Shown here: positions 21,908-41,395 of the stretch, piece after piece
Numbering within the stretch: position 1 is the first letter of the stretch
How the letters are laid out: every line of letters begins with the position of its first letter
From: Methylobacteriaceae bacterium
GTDB lineage: Bacteria > Pseudomonadota > Alphaproteobacteria > Rhizobiales > Beijerinckiaceae
Length of the DNA: 64,000 nt
Direction of reading: 5' to 3'
Assembly: GCA_020638195.1 (NCBI GenBank)
Contig: JACKJC010000004.1
Span: forward strand, 413,403 to 477,402
Position numbers and translations under genes: made by a program
Notes under the pieces: generated by a model
The model's input: only the letters and a program-made list of their open reading frames with translations
Databases searched by the model: none
What the model was told of the DNA's origin: nothing

Positions 21908-23332
21908 ATGCGCGCGAGCGATGCGATCGAGACCGAACTGGCGGGCGCGCTGGCCCGCCACGGTCTCGGCTTTGCGCGCATGGACGTCGACGGAACGCTG
22001 CTCGCGCGCGCTGGCGCCGCGCTCGACTGGCTGCCAGAAATCGGCGGCGACTGCCTCGGGACGCCCCTGCTGTTCGGCATGGCGGACGAACTCGCCGCCC
22101 TGCGCGCCGGCGCGCGCGACGTAGTCGCGCTGCCGTCGATCGGGCTCGATTCCGGAGAGAAGATCAGCGTCACGATTTCGTGGGACGAAACGCAGGAAGT
22201 CTATTCCATCGCCGCCGCGCGCGCTTTCGGCGCGAGCGAGACCGAAACCATGCTGGTGCGCGAACGTCGCGAACGCCGCCTCGCGGACGAACAAGCCGAG
22301 GCCGCACGGCGTCGCGCAAACATTAGCGATGCTCTCTATCGCGACATCGTCGAATCCTCGGCCGATCTGGTCCTGCGGATCGCGGCCGATGGAACGATCT
22401 CCTTCGCCAACACGCACGCTCAGGCCTTTTGCGGGCGCGGCCTCGATCGAATCGTCGGCGCGCGTCTCGACAATGCGCTGCGCCCGCTCGACGGCGCCGG
22501 CTGGCAGGCGCTGGCGCAACGCGCGAACGAGGAATCCTTCGAGCAGAAACTCTCCGCCGCCGATGGCCGCATCGCCTGGATTCTCTGGCGCGTCACCTGG
22601 CTCGGCGCCGCCGAGGGGCCGCCCGAGTTTCAGGCGGTTGGGCGCGATATCACACGCCTGCGCCAGCTGCAGGCGGAGGTCGAGCGCGCGCAGGCCCAGG
22701 CGCGGCAAGCGCTCGTCATGCGAGAGCGCCTGACCATCGCGCATGATCTGCACGACACGATCGTCCATGCGCTGGTCGCGGTCGTCGCGCAATTGCGCCT
22801 CGTGCGAAAACTGGCCGACCGGGCGCCGGAACGCGTACCGGAAGAGCTCGCTCGCGCCGAGGAGGCGGCAAGCGCCGGTCTCACGCGCGGACGCGAGGCG
22901 CTCGGCCAGGTTCGGTTCCAGCGCGCCGGCGACGAAGGTCTGGCGCTCGCGCTGAACCGTGCTGCCAGCAGGTTCCAGGAGCGGACCGGTCTACCCGTGG
23001 ATGTCGATATCGACGAAAAAATCGCCAGCGTTCACGGCGACTTGGCGGAACGGCTCTACCGCATCGCCGAGGAGGCCCTGCGCAATATCGAGCGCCATGC
23101 GCAGGCGAGCGGCGCCCGGATTTCGGCCGACATCTCCGGGGACGTCATCAGCATCGAGATCGCCGACGACGGCCGCGGTTTCGAGGCCGACGCCGCGCAT
23201 CCCGGGCATTACGGGCTTGCGGGCATGGCGGAACAGGCGCAAATGATCGGTGGACATTTTGTCGTGCAGACGAGCCCCGGCCAGGGCGCGCTAATCGCCA
23301 TTCGCGCGCCGCTCGTTCATCAGGAGCGTTAG
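21908..23332 (+). CDS. soluble PAS-domain sensor histidine kinase (HisKA_3/NarX-type)
   Basis: PAS (ALYRDIVESSADLVLRIAADGTISFAN), H-box (RERLTIAHDLHDTIVHAL), and HATPase N/G boxes (EEALRNIERHA, DDGRGF, GLAGM). No TM segment. Confidence 0.85.
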   Translation: MRASDAIETELAGALARHGLGFARMDVDGTLLARAGAALDWLPEIGGDCLGTPLLFGMADELAALRAGARDVVALPSIGLDSGEKISVTISWDETQEVYSIAAARAFGASETETMLVRERRERRLADEQAEAARRRANISDALYRDIVESSADLVLRIAADGTISFANTHAQAFCGRGLDRIVGARLDNALRPLDGAGWQALAQRANEESFEQKLSAADGRIAWILWRVTWLGAAEGPPEFQAVGRDITRLRQLQAEVERAQAQARQALVMRERLTIAHDLHDTIVHALVAVVAQLRLVRKLADRAPERVPEELARAEEAASAGLTRGREALGQVRFQRAGDEGLALALNRAASRFQERTGLPVDVDIDEKIASVHGDLAERLYRIAEEALRNIERHAQASGARISADISGDVISIEIADDGRGFEADAAHPGHYGLAGMAEQAQMIGGHFVVQTSPGQGALIAIRAPLVHQER

Positions 23333-23333
23333 T

Positions 23334-24002
23334 ATGCCCGGGACAACGGCCGGCAAGCCGCCGACGCGCGTCATGATCGTGGAGGATCAGCAACTGATCC
23401 GCCGTGCGTTCAAAACCATGCTGTCGCTCGAGCCAGACCTTGATGTCGTGGCGGAGGCCGGCGACGGACTGGAAGCCGTGCGGCTCGCCAGGCTGACAAA
23501 GCCCGAAGTCATCCTCATGGACCTGCAGATGCCACGCCTCGGCGGCGTGGCGGCGACACGGCAGATTCTCGCGGACCTTCCCGAAACGCGAATTATCGTC
23601 CTGACGACGTTCGACACCGACGAAATCGTGCTCGACGCGATTTCGGCGGGCGCGATCGCCTACCTGCTCAAGGACGCCGCCGAGGCCGATATTCTCGCCT
23701 CGATCCGCGGCGAAACCCGGCTTTCGCCCACCGTCGCCTCCAAGGTGCTGGGCGCGATCCGTCGCACGCACAAGACCGAGGAAAGCGCTGGCGGCGGCGA
23801 CGGTTCCGAGGAGGCTCTGACCACACGCGAGGATGCGATCCTGCGGCTGGTCGCGGTCGGGCGCAGCAACAAGGAAATAGCCAACGAGCTGAATCTCGCC
23901 GAGGGCACGGTCAAGAACTACGTCAGCCGGATCATGGACAAGCTCAATGTGCGTTCGCGCACGGAGCTCGCCGTCAAGGCCGTCAAAACCCGCCCGAAAT
24001 GA
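23334..24002 (+). CDS. NarL/FixJ (LuxR-type) response regulator
   Basis: REC (VMIVEDQ...VILMDLQMP...LTTF...YLLKD) plus a LuxR HTH (SNKEIANELNLAEGTVKNYVSRIMDKL). Start is 1 nt after the kinase stop. Confidence 0.9.
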   Translation: MPGTTAGKPPTRVMIVEDQQLIRRAFKTMLSLEPDLDVVAEAGDGLEAVRLARLTKPEVILMDLQMPRLGGVAATRQILADLPETRIIVLTTFDTDEIVLDAISAGAIAYLLKDAAEADILASIRGETRLSPTVASKVLGAIRRTHKTEESAGGGDGSEEALTTREDAILRLVAVGRSNKEIANELNLAEGTVKNYVSRIMDKLNVRSRTELAVKAVKTRPK

Positions 24003-24095
24003 CCAAAGTCATCCTCGCCGGATGACGAAGGTTAGATGTATACATATGAACCATATGAGATTGAAACGCCCGACGTTCACGAAAGGACGCCGGCC

Positions 24096-25214
24096 ATGTT
24101 CAATCCAAACGCTTCGGCGCACGATTATGCTCGCCTCGAAACCGAAAGCGCTCGCGCGCCACACGCGACGCCCATCGCTATCGTCATCGTCACCGACGAT
24201 CACGCGACCGCGCAGGCTCTGGTGAGCGCCTGCGAATTGATGCCCTCCTTCGATTGTCGCGTGCGCGTCGCCGCCTTGCGCGACGACCCCGCGGGTCTGC
24301 GGGCCCTGCCCGACGAAGTGCTGATCGTCGATGTGGCCAACGCACTGGAGCGCCGCCTCGACCCCGCGCGCTATCCCGCCTCGCCGTGCGTATCGCTCGT
24401 ACACGCGACGACGTCGGCCGAAGTCGATCATGCCGCACGTTCGCACGCGGCCATCCTGTTCGAGAACCTCTCCCCCGCCGCGCTCGAACTCGCGGTGCGC
24501 GCCGCGCTCCAGAACTGCCGCGCGCTGACCATCGCCCGCCGCACGCTGGAGGCTGCGGAACGTTCCGCGATCGCGGCCCGCGACAACCATCGACGCATGG
24601 TCGAGGAAGTCGGTCCGATCGCTCACGCGCTCGAAGGCCTTCTCGACATCATGGGAGCCGAGAACGCCGCCAACGGCGAATTGACGCCGACACAATTCGG
24701 CCTGTTGCACAACTGGACGCGCGATCTCTTGCGCCTCGTCGCGCGACACCAGGACGCCAGCGCCGCGCCAGTCGGGACGCAGGCCGATTTCGGCGCGATC
24801 GTGGAAAACTGCGTCGCACTTTTCCGGAGCAAATCCGACGGGCTCGGCCACATCGTGGTGGTTTCGAGCCCGCAGGAGCCGCTCGTCGTCGCCGTCGATC
24901 CGCGTCGCCTGCACGCCGCGATCCGGCAATTGACGGAAAGCGCGCTCGACCGCGAATTGCGCGACCGCCGCATCGACATCGTGCTGTGGCGCTCGATGGA
25001 CGAATGCCGCCTTGCGATCGTCAGCGGTCCGCCTGTACGGCGAGGAGCCGAGGCGGACGAGCAGCCCGCGCCGACGCCGGTGCGGCCGGCCGGGCCCGCC
25101 GACGAGCGCTTCGCGGGCGCGCTGGCGCAATTGCGCCAGCTCGGCGCGGTCGTCGAGACGAATTGCGCGAACGGATCGGGTTCGAGCCTGCTCGTGTCGT
25201 TGCCGATCGCCTGA
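24096..25214 (+). CDS. REC-like / degenerate histidine-kinase-like protein
   Basis: REC-like N-terminus (IVIVTDD...VLIVDV...LVHATT), an H-box-like IAHALEGLLDIM, and a C-terminal HATPase-like fold without clear N/G1/G2 boxes. Start set at MFNPN (GAAAGGA upstream). Confidence 0.5.
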   Translation: MFNPNASAHDYARLETESARAPHATPIAIVIVTDDHATAQALVSACELMPSFDCRVRVAALRDDPAGLRALPDEVLIVDVANALERRLDPARYPASPCVSLVHATTSAEVDHAARSHAAILFENLSPAALELAVRAALQNCRALTIARRTLEAAERSAIAARDNHRRMVEEVGPIAHALEGLLDIMGAENAANGELTPTQFGLLHNWTRDLLRLVARHQDASAAPVGTQADFGAIVENCVALFRSKSDGLGHIVVVSSPQEPLVVAVDPRRLHAAIRQLTESALDRELRDRRIDIVLWRSMDECRLAIVSGPPVRRGAEADEQPAPTPVRPAGPADERFAGALAQLRQLGAVVETNCANGSGSSLLVSLPIA

Positions 25215-25217
25215 TTG

Positions 25218-25718
25218 CTAGAACCCGCGCCGGACGATATCCGCGCCCATAGACTGGAACAGCGCCTGCACGCCCTCGCCCGTGCGCGCGCTGGTCCGCA
25301 CGACCTCGCCCGCCGCGAGGCCCGCGCCGGAGAAAGCGTCCGCGTCCAGATCGGCGAGATCGATCTTGTTGACGATCACGCGCGTCGGACGCCCCGGAAA
25401 GGCCTCGGCGAAGCCTGTGGCCAACCGCTCCGCCTTGGCGAGCGTCGCCGGTCGCGTCGCATCCGATACGATCAACGCGCCGGACGCGCCCTTGATGTAG
25501 ACGGTCTCGAAAATGCGCGCGCCGAAATCGCCGTCCGTGTCCCACAACATGAGTTTCAGCGTCCGCCCGTCGTCGAGCGTGATTTCGTGCGAGAGAATGT
25601 CGACGCCGATCGTCGACTTGTACTCGCCCTCGAACCTGTCGAAGACGAAGCGCCGCGCGAGCGACGACTTGCCGACGCCGATCTCGCCGAGCAGCATGAC
25701 TTTGGCCGAATACGTCAC
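25218..25718 (-). CDS. Ras/Rab-like small GTPase
   Basis: G1 GEIGVGKS, switch-I YKSTIGVD, G3 WDTDGD, G4 NKID, G5 TSARTG. The GTG start overlaps the upstream stop (GTGA). Confidence 0.85.
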   Translation of the reverse strand: MTYSAKVMLLGEIGVGKSSLARRFVFDRFEGEYKSTIGVDILSHEITLDDGRTLKLMLWDTDGDFGARIFETVYIKGASGALIVSDATRPATLAKAERLATGFAEAFPGRPTRVIVNKIDLADLDADAFSGAGLAAGEVVRTSARTGEGVQALFQSMGADIVRRGF

Positions 25719-27499
25719 GGGCGGGGCTCGTCCATCGACGCGAGTTCGAAAGTCACGCGGCGGTCGCGCGGATCGCTTTCCGCTCCGGTCTGGGCGAAGC
25801 CGGGGCGGGTGACGATCCGCAGCCGCGCCTTGTCCACGCCCTGAGAGGCGAGCAAATCGGCGACGGCGGTCGCGCGCATCTGCCCGATCACGAGATTGCG
25901 GCGCTCGCCACCGGTCGAATCCGTGTAGCCGACGACGCGTAGCGCGAGATCGTTGCCCTTGAGGGCCGCCGCGATCTGGCTCGCGCGCGTCTCCGCGATC
26001 GCCCGATCCACGAACGTATCCCGGCGTGAGAAATAGATCGCCGTGTCCGCCAGCATCGCAATCAGTTTTTCGCGCGGCGTGCGCGCTGCGGTCGCTGACA
26101 GCATGGTCAGGCGCTCCGAAATGTCGCGCGTTTCCGCGCGCAGCGCTTCGACCGATTGCTTGGTTGCGGTCGCGAGCGCCGCAAGCCGCGCATCGGCGTC
26201 GCCGACGCGCGCCGCTGTCTGCGCCGCACGCTCGGCCTCGTCCTTGCTGCGGGCTGCAAGCGTCGCGAGGCGTCCGTTCAGATCGGCCAGTTCCGCGCCG
26301 ATCTGCTCCTGCCGCTTGCGAGTCTCCTGCGCCTGCTGGACCGTGTTGATGCTCGCTGTATGAGCGACGACCTTATAGGGCGCGGCGGACGCGTCGAGCG
26401 CCTTCTTGAGCGCATCCGCTGCCGCGTCCGACGACGCGAGGCCGGCCAGCGTGACGGTCTTCGCCACATGATCGACGGAAACGCGCAGTGGAAAGGCGTC
26501 GAGCTCCGGATGCGCGATCCGCGCCTGCGCGAAGGCGGCGTCGACGCGCCGCTCGTGCAGCCCGCGCAAGACTGGCCCGCTTGCCCACCAACCGAGAAGC
26601 GCAAGCAGAGCCGCGCCGATCAATATGAGGGGCAGGCTCGACTTCTTCTCCGCCGACAGCCGCTGCTGGAACAGCGTCTCGGCCATATGCGCGAGCGCGG
26701 GCGTCGCATCGTCGGGCGCATGATCGATGCGCGACACCAGCGACAGAAATGCGTCGTCCACTTCGCGCTCGTGCTCGGGACGCAATGCGCCGGCGCATTC
26801 CGCCGCCACGAGATAGACCGGCGCGCCGCGCAGGAAGACGCGCGCCTGCCCGAGGTCGAGCGTCCGCAACTCGCCGCTGCGCGACCCGTAGACGCTCGAC
26901 GCGAATTCGGTGATCGCCGCGATCAGGCCGCTGACCAGTTCCGACTGGTCGTCGGTCTCGTCGTCGGCGTGCCAGGCAGCGACGAGTCGCCCGCTGCCGC
27001 GTTCCAGCAGCAGCAGGCGCCGCAGCTCCGGCCGCTGCGCCTCGGCGAGCGCGAGCTCGCTCAGCGGTCGCCCCGTGATCATCGAGCGAAAGCGCAACCG
27101 CCAGTATCGGGTCGACAGCGAGCGATCGAGCCGCTCGTTGAGATCGGCGACGAGATCGCGGAAAGCGTTGGCGACGGCGGCCGTCACGAGGCGACCCGTG
27201 ATCGGGTAGAGCGCCTCCACCATCATGTCCTTGGAATTCTTGATCTCGTTGCGGATCGCCGCGACCACGACCGGCGCCACCGCGCCGGCGAGTTCGCGAT
27301 GGCGCGCGATCTCGGCTTTCCGGAAGGCTTCGACCAGGATTTCGGACGTCGCCGCTTCCAGCCGGTCGGGCGTGCCGACGCGCTGATCGAGCGCGTCTAT
27401 GCGCGCCTCGCTCGCCGTCAGCCGGTCGGTCTCCGGCGCCAGCAGCAAGTGCTTGAGGCGATCGAATTCGAACTCCGACTGGCCGGCCGGCCGGTTCAT
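25715..27499 (-). CDS. bitopic envelope protein: cytoplasmic Roadblock-like region, one TM, BON-like domain, coiled coil, C-terminal OmpA/MotB peptidoglycan-binding domain
   Basis: OmpA_C signature (LRVVGYTDSTGGERRNLVIGQMRATAVADLL...RRVTFEL), TM (SSLPLILIGAALLALLGWWA), BON-like (LRVSVDHVAKTVTLAGLASSDAA). The ATG at 27499 lies 1 nt after the upstream stop. The GTG at 27517 is an alternative. Confidence 0.8.
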   Translation of the reverse strand: MNRPAGQSEFEFDRLKHLLLAPETDRLTASEARIDALDQRVGTPDRLEAATSEILVEAFRKAEIARHRELAGAVAPVVVAAIRNEIKNSKDMMVEALYPITGRLVTAAVANAFRDLVADLNERLDRSLSTRYWRLRFRSMITGRPLSELALAEAQRPELRRLLLLERGSGRLVAAWHADDETDDQSELVSGLIAAITEFASSVYGSRSGELRTLDLGQARVFLRGAPVYLVAAECAGALRPEHEREVDDAFLSLVSRIDHAPDDATPALAHMAETLFQQRLSAEKKSSLPLILIGAALLALLGWWASGPVLRGLHERRVDAAFAQARIAHPELDAFPLRVSVDHVAKTVTLAGLASSDAAADALKKALDASAAPYKVVAHTASINTVQQAQETRKRQEQIGAELADLNGRLATLAARSKDEAERAAQTAARVGDADARLAALATATKQSVEALRAETRDISERLTMLSATAARTPREKLIAMLADTAIYFSRRDTFVDRAIAETRASQIAAALKGNDLALRVVGYTDSTGGERRNLVIGQMRATAVADLLASQGVDKARLRIVTRPGFAQTGAESDPRDRRVTFELASMDEPRP

Positions 27500-27500
27500 G

Positions 27501-27824
27501 TCAGCGGGCCTTTCCACCCGCTCCCATCGCCCGGATGGTCGCGCCGAGGTCGGCGATCGCCTGCCCGATATTGTCGACGGACTGGTTGTGCTTGCTGTCG
27601 GTGTCGCGCCCCTGCTGGGCGAGCATCGCTTCCAGCGAGGCGAAACGGGCGCTCATGTCGTCGCGCAGCAGCGCGATCTGGCGATCGATATCGTCGAGCC
27701 GGGCCTCGGTCGAGCGCTTGGTGGCGCCGAAAAGCAGTTCGCGCACCTGATCGATCGCGCCTGTCTCGGTCATCGCGGCAACCTCCGCGGCGCCGTTGGC
27801 GGCGTCTGACTTGTTGTTACGCAT
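27501..27824 (-). CDS. small coiled-coil protein, first gene of the GTPase operon
   Basis: 107-aa ORF (or 90 aa from the internal ATG at 27773, which has GGAGG upstream). High GC3 and tightly coupled to the downstream gene. No recognised family. Confidence 0.5.
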   Translation of the reverse strand: MRNNKSDAANGAAEVAAMTETGAIDQVRELLFGATKRSTEARLDDIDRQIALLRDDMSARFASLEAMLAQQGRDTDSKHNQSVDNIGQAIADLGATIRAMGAGGKAR

Positions 27825-28047
27825 AGAACTTCCTTTGTCCCTGGCTGCCTAGGTTGGACCTGCCGACATTATCCGATCCGGCGCCATTGCGCTAAGCAAA
27901 ACCGCCGATACGTAAACAGGACGCCGTCCGCAATTGCTCCAGCGGGTTAATCTGCCGTCTTACGGCCCCGGGCGGTTAACTCCGGGGCAACAGCCCGCGT
28001 TTAGGCTGCGCTGCCGCCTTCGGTCGCGAGCGCCAATCGGAACCGCC

Positions 28048-35654: not shown

Positions 35655-36403
35655 CGCTTGTTTCCCTCGATTGCCGGCGCCTCGCGCGCGAAAGGCGCGA
35701 GCGCCTCGTCTTCTTTCAGCGCGACGCCCGTCTTGTTCAGACGGCGCGCAAGCGCAGCGATCGCCACGATCTTTCGCACGGCTTCGCCGATCGGCAAACC
35801 GGCAGGACGTATGTTCGAGACGCAATTGCGCTGCGCATCGCTGGTCGCGCCCGGCTTTGGCGCGAAAGTGATATAGGCGCCGAGACTGTCGGGCGAGGAA
35901 AGGCCCGGCCGCTCGCCGATCAACATGACGACGAGATCGGCGTCGAAGGCAGCGGCTATGTCGTCGCCGAGCCCCACCCGCGCCATCATCGCGATCACGG
36001 GCGGCGACCAGCGCCAGTCCGGCGACGCCGCGCGCAACGCGCGCACCAACGCGGGCCCATGCGCCTGCGCGGCGCGCGCGGAAAGTCCGTCGCCGAGAAC
36101 GAGCGCGCAGTCGAAACGGCCCGCGAGTTTTTCGCGGGAGGCGTCGGACAGGCGGCGCCCCTCGTCCGGACGTTCGAGATAGGCGCGGCGGTCGGCGGCG
36201 CGACTTTCGACGACCATAGGAGCCAGATCGGTAAGCTCCGAACTGATGCGCGCGATATCGAACGGCGCGTGGATCGCATCGCGCGCCTCAGCATGCGCCA
36301 TCTGGAATTCGAGCATACGGCGCGTCGGCAGCGAGACGCCCGTGCGCCCGAGCCCGATGCGCGCCGCGGTCAACCCGCGCAGATAGGCGAAGGGATCGCT
36401 CAT
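35651..36403 (-). CDS. eutC: ethanolamine ammonia-lyase small (light) subunit
   Basis: LRGLTAARIGLGRTGVSLPT...FQMAHAEARDAIH...LGDGLSARA. 4-nt overlap with eutB. Confidence 0.9.
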   Translation of the reverse strand: MSDPFAYLRGLTAARIGLGRTGVSLPTRRMLEFQMAHAEARDAIHAPFDIARISSELTDLAPMVVESRAADRRAYLERPDEGRRLSDASREKLAGRFDCALVLGDGLSARAAQAHGPALVRALRAASPDWRWSPPVIAMMARVGLGDDIAAAFDADLVVMLIGERPGLSSPDSLGAYITFAPKPGATSDAQRNCVSNIRPAGLPIGEAVRKIVAIAALARRLNKTGVALKEDEALAPFAREAPAIEGNKR

Positions 36404-37788
36404 GCGTCGCCCGCAAACGACAGCAGCCGCGAGGCGTCGCGCCGTGCTTCGGGCAGCATGCAGCCGGCGTCATCCATCAGTCCCATGCGCTGCAGCCAGG
36501 CCTCGAATTCCGGCGCAGGCCTGAGCCCCAGAACCTCGCGCACGTAGAGCGCATCGTGAAACGAGGTCGACTGATAGTTGAGCATGATGTCGTCGGCGCC
36601 CGGCACGCCCATCACATAGGTGCAGCCGGCGACGCCGAGCAGCGTCAGGAGATTGTCCATGTCGTCCTGGTCGGCCTCGGCGTGATTGGTGTAGCAGACG
36701 TCCACGCCCATCGGCAGGCCCATCAGCTTGCCGCAGAAATGATCCTCCAGCCCTGCGCGGATGATTTCCTTGCCGTCGTAGAGATATTCCGGCCCGATGA
36801 AGCCGACGACCGTGTTGACGAGCAGCGGCCTGTAGCGCCGCGCCACCGCATAGGCGCGCGCCTCCATCGTCTGCTGGTCGACGCCGTGATGCGCATTGGC
36901 CGACAGCGCGGAACCTTGTCCCGTCTCGAAATACATGACGTTGGACCCGAGCGTGCCTCGGTTAAGGGCTTGAGCAGCGTCATGCGCTTCATCAAGCAGC
37001 GCCAGCGATACGCCAAAAGATTCGTTCGCGGCCTGCGACCCGGCGATCGACTGGAACACGAGATCGACTGGCGCGCACTTCTCCATCGCCTGCATCATGG
37101 TCGTGACATGCGCGAGCACGCAGGTCTGGGTTGGAATGTCGTAGGTCTGCCGCAACTCGTCGAGCCGCTGCAGCAGCAGTGTCGCCTGCGCGGCGCTGTC
37201 GGTCGCCGGGTTGATGCCGATGACGGCGTCGCCCGCGCCGAGCAGCAGGCCGTCGATCACGCTGGCGGCAATGCCGCGCAGATCGTCGGTCGGATGGTTC
37301 GGCTGCAACCGCACCGACAGCCGGCCGGGCAGGCCGATCGTGTCGCGGAATTGCGTGACGACGGAAATCTTGCGCGCGACGAGAATCAGGTCCTGGTTGC
37401 GCATCAGCTTCGACACCGCGGCAGCCATTTCCGGCGTGACGCCCGGCGCGAGCGCGGAGAGCGCTTCGGTTGTCGCGGCGTCGGACAGCAGCCAGTCGCG
37501 GAATTCGCCCACGGTGAGCGAGGCAATCGGCGCGAAGGCCGCGGCGTCATGACTTTCGAAGATCAGGCGCGACACCTCATCGGTGTCGGCTGGCACGATC
37601 TCCTCGCCGAGAAGCCGCTTCAGTGGAACGTCAGCCAGCGCCATGCGCGCCGCCACACGCTCGGCGTCAGTTTCGGCGGCGAGGCCGGCGAGCCTGTCGC
37701 CGGAGCGCGCCGGCGAGGCCTTGGCCAGCAGCGTGCGTAGGTCGGGGAAGGCAGAAAACGGGGAGCCGACTGATGACGCTTGACTCAT
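36400..37788 (-). CDS. eutB: ethanolamine ammonia-lyase large (heavy) subunit
   Basis: 462 aa. LQPNHPTDD...GINPATDS...YFETGQGSALS...GLEDHFCGKLMGLPMGVDVCYTNHA are diagnostic EutB motifs. Confidence 0.95.
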   Translation of the reverse strand: MSQASSVGSPFSAFPDLRTLLAKASPARSGDRLAGLAAETDAERVAARMALADVPLKRLLGEEIVPADTDEVSRLIFESHDAAAFAPIASLTVGEFRDWLLSDAATTEALSALAPGVTPEMAAAVSKLMRNQDLILVARKISVVTQFRDTIGLPGRLSVRLQPNHPTDDLRGIAASVIDGLLLGAGDAVIGINPATDSAAQATLLLQRLDELRQTYDIPTQTCVLAHVTTMMQAMEKCAPVDLVFQSIAGSQAANESFGVSLALLDEAHDAAQALNRGTLGSNVMYFETGQGSALSANAHHGVDQQTMEARAYAVARRYRPLLVNTVVGFIGPEYLYDGKEIIRAGLEDHFCGKLMGLPMGVDVCYTNHAEADQDDMDNLLTLLGVAGCTYVMGVPGADDIMLNYQSTSFHDALYVREVLGLRPAPEFEAWLQRMGLMDDAGCMLPEARRDASRLLSFAGDA

Positions 37789-37797
37789 GATCGCAGG

Positions 37798-39339
37798 TTA
37801 CACCCCAGTGAATTGTCTACTTAGAATTTGTAGTTTTCTCTGCGAGGCATAGTCGCGGCAGAACAATGCAAACTGCTCTTCCCGTCCGGAAAATTTTTGG
37901 TCATCGCCTTCACCAAAGCGCGCCACATCCCACACGCGACACCCTGATGCGGCGCTGATCTTTAGCTTGGGTCCGATGGCGGAGGCCCGAGCGTCCCAAT
38001 ATACAAAGGCGGTTAGGTAGTCGGAAGTCCCAAGCTTCAGCGATATCGGAGAAGCGAAGATACATTTATTTTTTCCAATTTTTCCCTCGACGTTCGAATC
38101 AAAAGTGTATGTGATTGAAGTCTTGAGCTTAGAGTCGCATAGTGACATCACGCCCAATTCATCGCCTTGTTCGAATAATGTCGTGTATGGAAGCTCGATA
38201 GGCTTTGACCAGCCGATAGCTGATAGAAATGTCGAAACGATACCAGCACGCTTTGACAGCTCTTCAAAGAGCCTATTCCTGCCAACCCGTACCCCGCTAA
38301 CACGAGCAAAATTTTTCCCGTCAACGGCAAAATTGACGGTTAGACTGCCTCTTGAAGCAGCGACAATAAATTTCAGCGAACTGGCGAGCTCCGTAATCTC
38401 ATATTTTTTGTTTGGCTCCACTTCTGCAGTGAAAGCCACACTATCGTTACGCATCGTGACATTCAAAAGTGGATTGAACAATCGGGCTTTGCGAAGTTCG
38501 AACGGAAGATTGCTAAGCGGCGGAACAACAACATGCATTTGCAGCCGATCACCCGCTTTTCGGCCGGAATGCCAATGCATATCACACATCCGAGACGAGG
38601 TCGGTGTAATTTTCAAAACCCCCGCCGAGAATTTTTCTACGCTGAGCGGTATTCCAAATCGAAGCGAGGAAATTTCAATCCCCTCTACTTTTAAATCGCC
38701 GAGACCAAGCGTTGCATCTATAAAATCAGAGACCGGTACGGCACCACTCAGTGAAAATTGGAATGCACCGCTTTCATAACCTACGGTGCGAAGCCATTCC
38801 GCTTTCTTCGCAGAATAGGCTGAAGCATCCGTGCCTATGATACTCTTGACAGCGTCTGCGAGCGGCGATCCTAGTAGCACTTCCTCCGCCGCATCGGCGA
38901 CAAAGACCATGGACTGACGGTGAAGATTAGCGCCCCCCAACGCTTCACTCTGCCGGACTTTCTTCAGCGTCTGCGCAATCCACTCAAGTCCAAAGTGGCA
39001 CAAATACATTTTCGTCGGGGCGTTGGAGCCACCAAATTCATAAATAACAACGAATGCAGGAAGGATTGTTTGAGTCAGATGCAAAAAATTACTTAATTTC
39101 ATCGAAAGGCGGCGATCATCGAAATTATCGGTCGCCTTGATCTGGCAAAGAATTTTTAATGGTGGTGGCTGGGAGTCGAGGAACACTGCGGGAAGCTGAT
39201 TCCGCGGAAATTCAACAAACCAATCCCATCCCCTCTCATCATGCTTAGGAGGGGTGGCGGACAAATGAGAGTCTAAGCATTGCCTCTCGAAGAAATTCTC
39301 CCCGAGTCTCCCCAACTGCCTTGTTCTATCTTCGGCCAT
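37798..39339 (-). CDS. orphan low-GC protein: DUF4365-like PD-(D/E)xK N-terminal domain plus unrecognised ~390-aa C-terminal domain
   Basis: 513-aa ORF spanning the only strongly AT-rich block in the window. The N-terminus GRLGENFFERQC...HDERGWDWFVEFP...LCQIKAT...LPAFVVIYEF fits the DUF4365 pattern (E..G...D.G.D..vE...Q.K...P..vv.y). Confidence 0.8.
   Translation of the reverse strand: MAEDRTRQLGRLGENFFERQCLDSHLSATPPKHDERGWDWFVEFPRNQLPAVFLDSQPPPLKILCQIKATDNFDDRRLSMKLSNFLHLTQTILPAFVVIYEFGGSNAPTKMYLCHFGLEWIAQTLKKVRQSEALGGANLHRQSMVFVADAAEEVLLGSPLADAVKSIIGTDASAYSAKKAEWLRTVGYESGAFQFSLSGAVPVSDFIDATLGLGDLKVEGIEISSLRFGIPLSVEKFSAGVLKITPTSSRMCDMHWHSGRKAGDRLQMHVVVPPLSNLPFELRKARLFNPLLNVTMRNDSVAFTAEVEPNKKYEITELASSLKFIVAASRGSLTVNFAVDGKNFARVSGVRVGRNRLFEELSKRAGIVSTFLSAIGWSKPIELPYTTLFEQGDELGVMSLCDSKLKTSITYTFDSNVEGKIGKNKCIFASPISLKLGTSDYLTAFVYWDARASAIGPKLKISAASGCRVWDVARFGEGDDQKFSGREEQFALFCRDYASQRKLQILSRQFTGV

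Positions 39340-39379: not shown

Positions 39380-41395
<2,016 letters not shown>

Follow-up and report, generated by a model that had tools for sequence, protein, structure and literature searches.

The stretch of Methylobacteriaceae DNA analyzed here (64,000 nucleotides (nt), in its full length called the window, from whose position 1 all coordinates count) carries on its minus strand, at 25218-27824, an operon of three genes, which by protein content and gene order is identified as a further representative of the Group 1 Rup module known since a comparative genomic survey of 2014. As read from the sequence, the module is made up here of four core parts, which are the small helical protein DUFY, the membrane protein DUFX:OmpA, the Ras/Rab-like GTPase Rup and a soluble histidine kinase, and, in addition, a response regulator. 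New is the prediction of a Roadblock/longin fold for the previously unassigned DUFX domain. In the overall picture proposed here by analogy with other GTPase systems, DUFX would be a peptidoglycan-anchored Roadblock platform that controls Rup, and Rup would in turn gate the kinase; we consider this picture to have slightly better than even chances of being correct. The components are the following:

27501..27824, minus strand: DUFY, small cytoplasmic helical protein of 107 amino acids (aa), an open reading frame (ORF) forming the first gene of the operon
25715..27499, minus strand: DUFX:OmpA, bitopic inner-membrane protein of 594 aa; ATG at 27499 most likely start, GTG at 27517 alternative
25218..25718, minus strand: Rup, Ras/Rab-like small GTPase of 166 aa, belonging to Group 1 Rup; start overlaps the DUFX stop in GTGA
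21908..23332, plus strand: soluble histidine kinase, putative fourth component, with module-specific N-terminal domain (aa 1-135, nt 21908-22312), PAS, HisKA_3 and HATPase_c (Pfam)
23334..24002, plus strand: response regulator of the NarL/LuxR type, separated from the kinase gene by 1 nt (Response_reg 3e-24, GerE 1e-20)

Prokaryotic small Ras-like GTPases were split by Wuichet & Søgaard-Andersen (Genome Biol Evol 7:57, 2014/15, PMC4316618) into the MglA and Rup families. According to this survey, Group 1 Rup proteins are single-domain GTPases of 150-240 aa with the motifs G1-G5 and without the G3 glutamine. Their genes sit with three conserved genes, which encode a coiled-coil cytoplasmic protein (DUFY), a protein containing DUFX, a conserved domain of unknown nature behind which a transmembrane (TM) helix and an OmpA domain are often found, and an output protein (kinase or GGDEF/EAL), the N-terminal region of which was reported to contain an invariant glutamine. 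A conservon-like signaling complex was proposed in the survey, and no Rup coupled to MglB was reported. In its Table S2, the order DUFY>DUFX:OmpA>Rup is listed for Mesorhizobium loti mlr3243, cyanobacteria (Nostoc, Anabaena), Nitrospira, Sorangium, Sulfurovum, Alteromonas, Glaciecola and others, and Flavobacteriia are listed with DUFY>DUFX>Rup without OmpA. In later papers, Rup1 serves as a reference clade and clusters with the eukaryotic Rab, Ras, Rho and Ran and with Asgard RasL. An experimental study of any Group 1 Rup member or partner, or a Roadblock domain in DUFX, was not found in the literature, most subscription journals lying outside the search; one preprint on the sensing of peptidoglycan damage was considered and is unrelated. 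An earlier note on this DNA, made from the letters alone, had stated that no characterized system of such composition was known. The composition was in fact catalogued in the survey, yet with regard to experimental characterization the statement holds.

The window locus shares with the published Group 1 loci the Ras-like GTPase with canonical G motifs and no G3 glutamine, the small upstream gene, the protein composed of DUFX, TM helix and OmpA domain, and the associated kinase with a special N-terminal region. Its gene order is that of Mesorhizobium loti mlr3243, Nostoc, Sorangium and Alteromonas, and profiles of its proteins match distant members. Unlike in the published loci, the kinase is not contiguous with the trio, being placed 1.9 kb downstream on the opposite strand together with the NarL-type regulator and an extra ORF, and DUFX, treated as an unknown domain in the publication, is predicted here to be Roadblock-like.

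Within 25218-27824, three minus-strand ORFs were found, encoding 107 aa (27501-27824), 600 aa when counted from GTG (25715-27517) and 166 aa (25218-25718). Direct reading of the junctions gives TGA(27503-27501)-c-ATG(27499-27497) between DUFY and DUFX, and GTGA at 25718-25715 between DUFX and rup, where the stop codon of DUFX overlaps the GTG start of rup, so that the translationally coupled arrangement described in the earlier note is confirmed. Of the two starts considered there for DUFX, that is, the ATG leaving a 1-nt gap and the GTG at 27517 giving a 17-nt overlap, the ATG at 27499 is likely to be the correct one and the GTG is disfavored, because homologues begin with MNRPAGQ... and a 100%-identical database protein has 594 aa. 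The DUFY ATG is preceded by AGGAAG at a spacing of 6 nt, and in a terminator scan no terminator-like site above background was detected within the operon. By best database matches, the DNA is assigned to a Rhodoblastus (Beijerinckiaceae, Hyphomicrobiales).

Co-occurrence of the three genes, a check that had been suggested together with the earlier note, was followed by a pattern scan in which each GTDB species was represented by a single genome and which yielded 79 loci, all of them alphaproteobacterial; locus counts are based on 83 loci, the stop-to-stop ORFs of which were searched with profiles built from the window proteins. Wherever sequence is available at that site (79/79 loci), rup is located directly 3' of DUFX on the same strand, the other 4 loci ending at a contig edge, and a DUFY homologue is found immediately 5' of DUFX in 78 of 81 loci. 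The order of the trio is kept in Methylovirgula and in Methylocystis-like genomes at ~40% identity of DUFX. Relatives of the module occur also in Nitratireductor and Chelativorans, and a DUFX fragment of Mesorhizobium (P0255) scores 6.9e-94 with the DUFX profile. In Winogradskyella (Bacteroidota), DUFY is followed by a 267-aa DUFX without OmpA, by Rup and by a hybrid kinase; two other distant contigs have the order DUFY>DUFX>Rup>kinase, and all three were reached via a profile of the cytoplasmic part of DUFX. The DUFX proteins of the Bacteroidota genome and of these two contigs are matched by the DUFX profile at 1e-34 to 1e-45. The linkage is thus very strong: the trio is co-linear in each of the 79 alphaproteobacterial loci with downstream sequence and recurs in Bacteroidota and other distant lineages.

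For the GTPase itself, the Pfam models Ras (5.7e-24) and Roc (1e-19) and the small_GTP model TIGR00231 (3e-17) were matched. The closest solved relatives of Rup are Rab5a, Rab11A, Rab18 and Rab1 (E~1e-21); all of the best 60 are eukaryotic Rab/Ypt-type GTPases and MglA is absent among them, which, along with the Pfam Ras match, bears out the earlier description of this 166-aa protein as being closer to Rab/Ras than to MglA. The name 'Rab family GTPase', which is given to such proteins at NCBI, reflects best-hit similarity only. G1 (GEIGVGKS), switch I (YKSTIGVD), G4 (NKID) and G5 (SAR) are canonical, with switch I and G4 present as previously read. In G3 (WDTDGDF), the residue equivalent to Gln61 of Ras is Asp, and the DxxG aspartate is kept. 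Intact G1 and G4 motifs are seen in all of 120 close homologues and an intact G5 in 119, and G3 reads WDTDG[DE], devoid of glutamine, again in all 120. Likewise, none of the 78 locus-encoded Rup copies in which the motif was found has a glutamine in G3; distant members read WDIEGT, WDIAGG and WDLAGS. The C-terminus (...DIVRRGF) has no C-terminal cysteine, and a cysteine within the last 5 residues is present in 3/120 homologues. By its motifs, Rup is classified as a nucleotide-binding-competent Ras/Rab-like switch that lacks the catalytic glutamine and, therefore, is expected to hydrolyze GTP poorly when alone.

The partner encoded immediately upstream, DUFX:OmpA, was modeled in full length with AlphaFold2 (AF2) from a 63-sequence alignment (mean predicted local distance difference test (pLDDT) 82.7). 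Its parts, among which the residues of the N-terminal helical region are numbered from the GTG start, are as follows:

27074..27481, minus strand: N-terminal helical region (aa 13-148), most conserved part, with the signature (D/E)ALYPIxG
26720..27064, minus strand: predicted Roadblock/LC7/longin-like domain (aa 152-266), alpha-beta-beta-alpha-beta-beta-beta-alpha
26570..26635, minus strand: single TM helix (aa ~295-316), Kyte-Doolittle 19-residue maximum 1.99 at 294-313
26351..26488, minus strand: periplasmic BON-like beta-beta-alpha-beta unit (aa 344-389), AF2 secondary structure
26087..26338, minus strand: periplasmic Ala/Arg-rich helix of 84 residues (aa 394-477), differing in length between homologues, AF2
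25742..26038, minus strand: OmpA-like peptidoglycan-binding domain (aa 494-592), PF00691 8.5e-10, 39.3 bits versus a cut-off of 27.2

The predicted Roadblock/longin domain was obtained in two independent AF2 models, namely, that of the full-length protein and that of residues 145-288 alone (25 sequences, pLDDT 85.9, predicted template modeling score 0.78), both of which give alpha-beta-beta-alpha-beta-beta-beta-alpha at aa 152-266. When the PDB was searched by Foldseek with residues 145-288, the best 50 matches were all Roadblock/LC7 or longin proteins (E 2e-4 to 2.6e-3, template modeling score 0.35-0.55). Among them are CopZ1 (2e-4), axonemal LC7, MP1-p14/LAMTOR, Ego3, MglB (6izw_C 7.8e-4; 6h5b_B; 3t1s) and MglC (7ct3), as well as Sec22b, Mon1-Ccz1 complexed with Ypt7, AP sigma subunits and Rag C-terminal domains; many of these structures were solved in complex with small GTPases. 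Because the match list is uniform and CopZ1 was matched independently with the full-length model, we are rather confident that DUFX ~150-270 adopts a Roadblock/LC7/longin fold. That it would be a true, very divergent Roadblock/longin domain, serving as membrane-tethered GTPase-activating protein (GAP) or guanine nucleotide exchange factor (GEF) platform for the Rab/Ras-like Rup1 GTPase, is a more tentative suggestion, to which we assign somewhat less than even odds. The Pfam Roadblock model is matched by 0/63 DUFX homologues, and no signal of this kind exists at the sequence level; therefore, the survey of 2014 saw no Rup coupled to MglB. Residue R218 of ELRTLD had been considered as a conserved arginine finger and was dropped, since it is invariant in alphaproteobacteria and replaced in Bacteroidota-type DUFX. 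The ~290-aa cytoplasmic N-terminus described in the earlier note is correct in its anatomy, but with the predicted domain it is not featureless, and the contrast drawn there to the entirely cytoplasmic MglA/MglB becomes smaller because of the same prediction.

The helical region preceding the Roadblock-like domain consists in the AF2 model of the helices H13-47, H50-71, H73-94 and H100-148, with lower pLDDT (59-76). Invariant alignment columns are E101-P105 and G108 (EALYPITG in the window protein), and A96, L97, Y98, P99 and G102 stay invariant with Bacteroidota-type DUFX relatives added. Across phyla, the invariant positions comprise an N-terminal LxxLL, (D/E)ALYPIxG, a beta-hairpin glycine and, in the Roadblock-like domain, the helix SG(M/L)IAAIxxF. 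The cytoplasmic module of DUFX is matched by no model of Pfam or NCBIfam; when 1.84 billion representatives were searched exhaustively with this module in HMMER, 5,951 clusters (50% identity) were retrieved at E<=1e-3, including 2,565 at E<=1e-30.

On the C-terminal side, the TM segment forms part of a helix spanning 295-335 in the AF2 model. BON (PF04972) matches the stretch 344-389 with E 0.0048 and 17.6 bits versus a cut-off of 27, which is below the Pfam gathering score; 14 of 63 homologues have BON matches at E<=0.01 (best 9.8e-6), and the predicted beta-beta-alpha-beta unit is compatible with them. The BON-like domain named in the earlier note is thus retained as a weakly supported assignment for the window protein. 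PF00691, on the other hand, is matched by 63/63 homologues, and the OmpA fold is matched in Foldseek by Pal, the OmpA C-terminal domain, YfiB and YiaD at 3e-6 to 1e-4. Of the residue pair contacting peptidoglycan, Asp533 (GYTD) is found in at least 90% of the sequences and Arg548 is invariant. The periplasmic part, consisting of the BON-like unit, the long helix and the OmpA domain, is predicted to attach the protein to peptidoglycan. A bitopic protein with one TM segment, a long coiled coil and an OmpA domain had been read from the sequence before; hydropathy, PF00691, the 84-residue AF2 helix and the Foldseek matches agree with this reading.

Two variants of DUFX were seen in passing. In three large proteins, P0339 (1159 aa), P0377 (1079 aa) and P0429 (1125 aa), the DUFX-module profile matches 4-9 separate stretches, which are apparent tandem repeats. 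At L084:5001-6864, the cytoplasmic part of DUFX (313 aa) and a hydrophobic N-terminal segment with the OmpA-like part (326 aa) are encoded by separate, overlapping genes between DUFY and rup, as a split version of the fusion.

DUFY has no family match in Pfam or NCBIfam. Its profile matches the equivalent genes of three distant loci (L083-L085) at E 1e-9 to 1e-11. An hhalign comparison of DUFY with the first ~75 aa of DUFX resulted in a probability of 89% (E 2.3e-6) and a common motif, (I/L)xx(L/V)(R/K)xLL(F/L). This resemblance to the N-terminal helix of DUFX is no more than suggestive, given that spurious alignments can arise between helical sequences of coiled-coil-like character.

As the conserved fourth component, the kinase at 21908-23332 is identified by its module-specific N-domain. 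The first ~135 aa align with the N-terminus of the kinase encoded directly after rup in Methylovirgula (E 7e-9). Carriers of this domain are found within 8 kb in 46/83 loci, where they immediately follow rup, lie 1-3 kb downstream on the opposite strand, or are placed ~1 kb upstream. The 10 carriers sampled are all soluble kinases composed as N-domain-[PAS]-HisKA or HisKA_3-HATPase_c. No TM segment was detected in the window kinase (Kyte-Doolittle maximum 1.49). Since the N-domain is seen solely with the module and apart from one PAS no obvious sensor is present, the kinase is as expected of a downstream effector of Rup. A homologue of the regulator (E<=1e-20) is linked in 46/83 loci, including 18 Methylocystis-type loci without a kinase nearby, and altogether a kinase or a NarL-type regulator is situated next to the trio in 64/83 loci. 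Kinase and regulator had both been missed in the earlier note, in which the module was treated as one of three genes.

In several Methylocystis-type loci (L002/L003, L018, L022 and others), there is no module kinase within 8 kb and a NarL/LuxR homologue is nearby, which in L002/L003 is convergent and immediately after rup; the cognate kinase of such loci may be encoded elsewhere in the genome. From its sequence pattern, the kinase N-domain had been suspected to be PAS-like, which gained no support from hhalign comparison with the PAS domains of the same kinases (probability 1%); comparison with the DUFX Roadblock domain gave a probability of 0.3%.

Roadblock proteins are docking or regulatory platforms for small GTPases, as exemplified by MglB for MglA, CvnB/MfpD for the conservon GTPases, and Ragulator and Mon1-Ccz1 for Rag and Rab7, respectively. 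By analogy with these, a DUFX dimer, joined by its long helices, would present a pair of Roadblock domains as a platform on which Rup docks and is regulated (by GAP or GEF action). Through the single TM helix of DUFX, this platform would be informed of the condition of the cell wall or periplasm. DUFY, resembling a free copy of the N-terminal helix of DUFX, might pack against that helix or compete with it and in this way tune the platform. One nucleotide state of Rup would then bind the module-specific N-terminal domain of the kinase and alter the kinase activity, and the kinase would phosphorylate the adjacent NarL/LuxR regulator, eventually leading to changes in transcription. Of the functions offered in the earlier note, which had spoken of an envelope-spanning signaling, polarity or anchoring module, signaling remains the best reading; polarity and tethering are its rivals.

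Several observations weigh against this picture. Predicted structure is the basis of the Roadblock call, for which the Foldseek statistics are modest (E ~1e-4 to 1e-3, template modeling score 0.35-0.55), and the cytoplasmic domain of DUFX was not identified at sequence level in Pfam, in NCBIfam or in a profile search of PDB sequences. Conservation of DUFX peaks in the N-terminal helical region, not in the Roadblock-like domain, and no conserved candidate catalytic residue emerged in DUFX across phyla. The similarity between DUFY and DUFX could stem from coiled-coil composition. A carrier of the kinase N-domain was not found within 8 kb in 37/83 loci, and for the fold of this domain no match was obtained in Pfam (E<=10) or in a PDB profile search. 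The glutamine that was reported as invariant in the output region is not invariant in the alphaproteobacterial kinase set: among 46 N-domains, compared without the published logo positions, there is no invariant glutamine column, the best ones reaching 61% and 43%, where the window protein has Q129 and R118, respectively. Finally, signaling could run outside-in or inside-out.

In the strongest, although unlikely, alternative, control of the envelope would run inside-out. The kinase/regulator pair or another cytoplasmic cue would set the state of Rup, and Rup-GTP would act on the oligomerization of DUFX or on its grip on peptidoglycan, the output being mechanical (envelope tethering or stiffness) and not transcriptional. 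Such a role would be in line with DUFX being the invariant partner of Rup while the kinase is dispensed with nearby in the 37 loci mentioned, and with OmpA and BON domains being structural or tethering modules. Roadblock/longin domains can, moreover, be effectors or scaffolds, and the Foldseek matches include the scaffold LAMTOR; because Bacteroidota have versions without OmpA, the periplasmic part could be seen as an interchangeable, 'output-like' appendage. This is countered by the kinase domain, which is module-specific and accompanied by one PAS as sole other obvious sensor, by the fourth gene, the product of which is across phyla always an enzyme of the output type (kinases in the loci seen here, kinases or GGDEF/EAL proteins in PMC4316618), and by the single TM helix, which is a weak conduit for mechanical work.

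Less probable still is a function as spatial landmark, where DUFX fixed to the wall would mark the pole, septum or stalk, Rup would cycle on and off and recruit proteins, and the kinase would be a peripheral client. MglA/MglB, in which MglA cycles at MglB-marked poles, is a polarity system. It is the closest bacterial paradigm of a GTPase with a Roadblock protein and matches the predicted DUFX fold through MglB, and anchoring to peptidoglycan would provide positional memory; polarity had also been suggested in the earlier note. However, conserved genes for cytoskeleton, motility, division or secretion are absent beside the module in the 83 loci, two-component proteins are its sole recurrent neighbours, and the carriers differ widely in morphology (Flavobacteriia, cyanobacteria, Alteromonas, methanotrophs). 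A proton-driven, stator-like or defense machine of the MotB, TolR/Pal or Zorya ZorB kind, with the OmpA protein as plug or anchor, was considered in view of weak matches of the C-terminal domain to MotB/MotD and TssL models and to ZorB in PADLOC (E 1e-4), and it is highly improbable and effectively refuted, since these matches are confined to the generic OmpA-like domain (aa ~510-593) and far under the family cut-offs, no MotA-, ExbB-, TolQ- or ZorA-like partner gene exists in the window or in related loci, the TM helix LPLILIGAALLALLGWWAS contains no Asp or Glu, and DUFY and Rup have no PADLOC match.

With MglA/MglB of Myxococcus and Thermus the module has in common that a small GTPase gene adjoins that of a protein with Roadblock fold, predicted here at fold level only, and that the switch probably needs a partner for hydrolysis. 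It differs in that Rup is Rab/Ras-like and not of the MglA family, in that DUFX has no sequence similarity to MglB, in that the Roadblock-like domain is contained in a 594-aa membrane protein anchored to peptidoglycan instead of a soluble protein of ~160 aa, and in that the output is a two-component system instead of motility polarity. The actinobacterial conservon CvnA-D/Mfp is likewise a four-part membrane module of histidine kinase, Roadblock-fold protein, small accessory protein and small GTPase, an analogy drawn also in PMC4316618. Conservon GTPases, however, belong to the MglA family, and the conservon kinase CvnA is a membrane protein with HAMP, whereas here the kinase is soluble with PAS and the Roadblock-like protein is in the membrane; DUF742 (CvnC) is not matched by any module protein. 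To the eukaryotic platforms Ragulator-Rag, Mon1-Ccz1-Rab7, TRAPP and the sigma and zeta subunits of AP/COPI, the module is related by the predicted fold of DUFX 152-266 (LAMTOR2/3, Mon1-Ccz1, CopZ1, AP sigma), by the membrane platform and by the Rab/Ras-like partner. Unlike these, DUFX is without detectable sequence homology and is anchored by a TM helix and a cell-wall domain, not by lipid modification, and Rup has no prenylation cysteine. With Pal, YiaD, YfiB and OmpA C-terminal domains, DUFX shares the C-terminal fold and the conserved Asp/Arg pair contacting peptidoglycan; while those proteins are outer-membrane lipoproteins or porins, DUFX has an inner-membrane N-in TM helix like MotB/TssL and a large cytoplasmic signaling part.

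Two further features adjoin the operon:

27868..27917, minus strand: upstream element, candidate promoter/operator of the operon, GTTTACGTATC ... TTTTGCTTAGCGCA ... GATAAT, from an alignment of 13 related upstream regions
24036..25214, plus strand: ORF of 392 aa, possibly a degenerate kinase, convergent with rup; lineage-specific accessory, module membership uncertain

The GTTTACGTATC, TTTTGCTTAGCGCA and GATAAT blocks are located ~45-95 nt before the DUFY ATG, their conservation being strongest in the closest relatives, and lie in the 223-nt divergent intergenic region common to the DUFY operon and the genes of an ABC ATPase and permease. They probably represent a promoter or operator of the operon; a scan for consensus sigma-70 sites found no promoter upstream of it. 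The ABC exporter pair was rejected as a part of the module, being syntenic solely in 16-17 close relatives. At the other end, a distance of 3 nt separates the stop of rup on the minus strand from that of the 392-aa ORF on the plus strand (25212-25220), which leaves no room for a terminator between the convergent operons, and therefore their transcripts probably overlap. The divergent exporter pair and the convergent pseudo-kinase are thus arranged as first noted, with the kinase similarity of the latter being just faint: aa 248-308 are weakly like the RetS CA domain (E 4e-4), which is the sole computed similarity, and no Pfam match was obtained. By eye, the N-terminus appears receiver-like (IVIVTDD ... 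LIVDV) and a central stretch H-box-like; the protein may be a degenerate hybrid kinase. As conserved fourth gene it was rejected, since it is unrelated to the kinase following rup in Methylovirgula and is present in just 11/83 loci, restricted to close Rhodoblastus relatives. Elsewhere in the window, a 513-aa ORF at 37798-39339 (minus strand), between eutB (36400-37788) and thiC (39380-41329), fills the only stretch of low GC content (0.53 versus ~0.65); given this composition and the absence of a Pfam or PADLOC match, it is possibly a horizontally acquired orphan gene.

Summarizing, the module is not new in kind; what is added here is a predicted fold for DUFX, together with the recognition of the kinase and regulator at their displaced position. 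No other bacterial proteins resemble eukaryotic Rab, Ras, Rho and Ran as much as the Rup1 GTPases do, and these serve as reference points for the origin of the eukaryotic GTPase repertoire. The locus is a clean, complete example from a cultivable group (Rhodoblastus and other Beijerinckiaceae/Hyphomicrobiales), in which the specific soluble kinase and the NarL-type regulator could provide a read-out of the module. The DUFX family is large (~6,000 clusters at 50% identity), yet it has no Pfam model; the Roadblock prediction makes this anonymous domain a candidate GAP, GEF or docking platform and ties Rup to the paradigm of MglB, conservon and Ragulator. If true, a partnership of Roadblock/longin domains with the Ras-like branch, beyond the MglA and Rag/Arf branches, would predate eukaryotes in bacteria. 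The module would then constitute a switch across the envelope, by which a two-component system is informed of the state of the wall, and it would show that in bacteria the wall can be coupled to a Ras-like switch.

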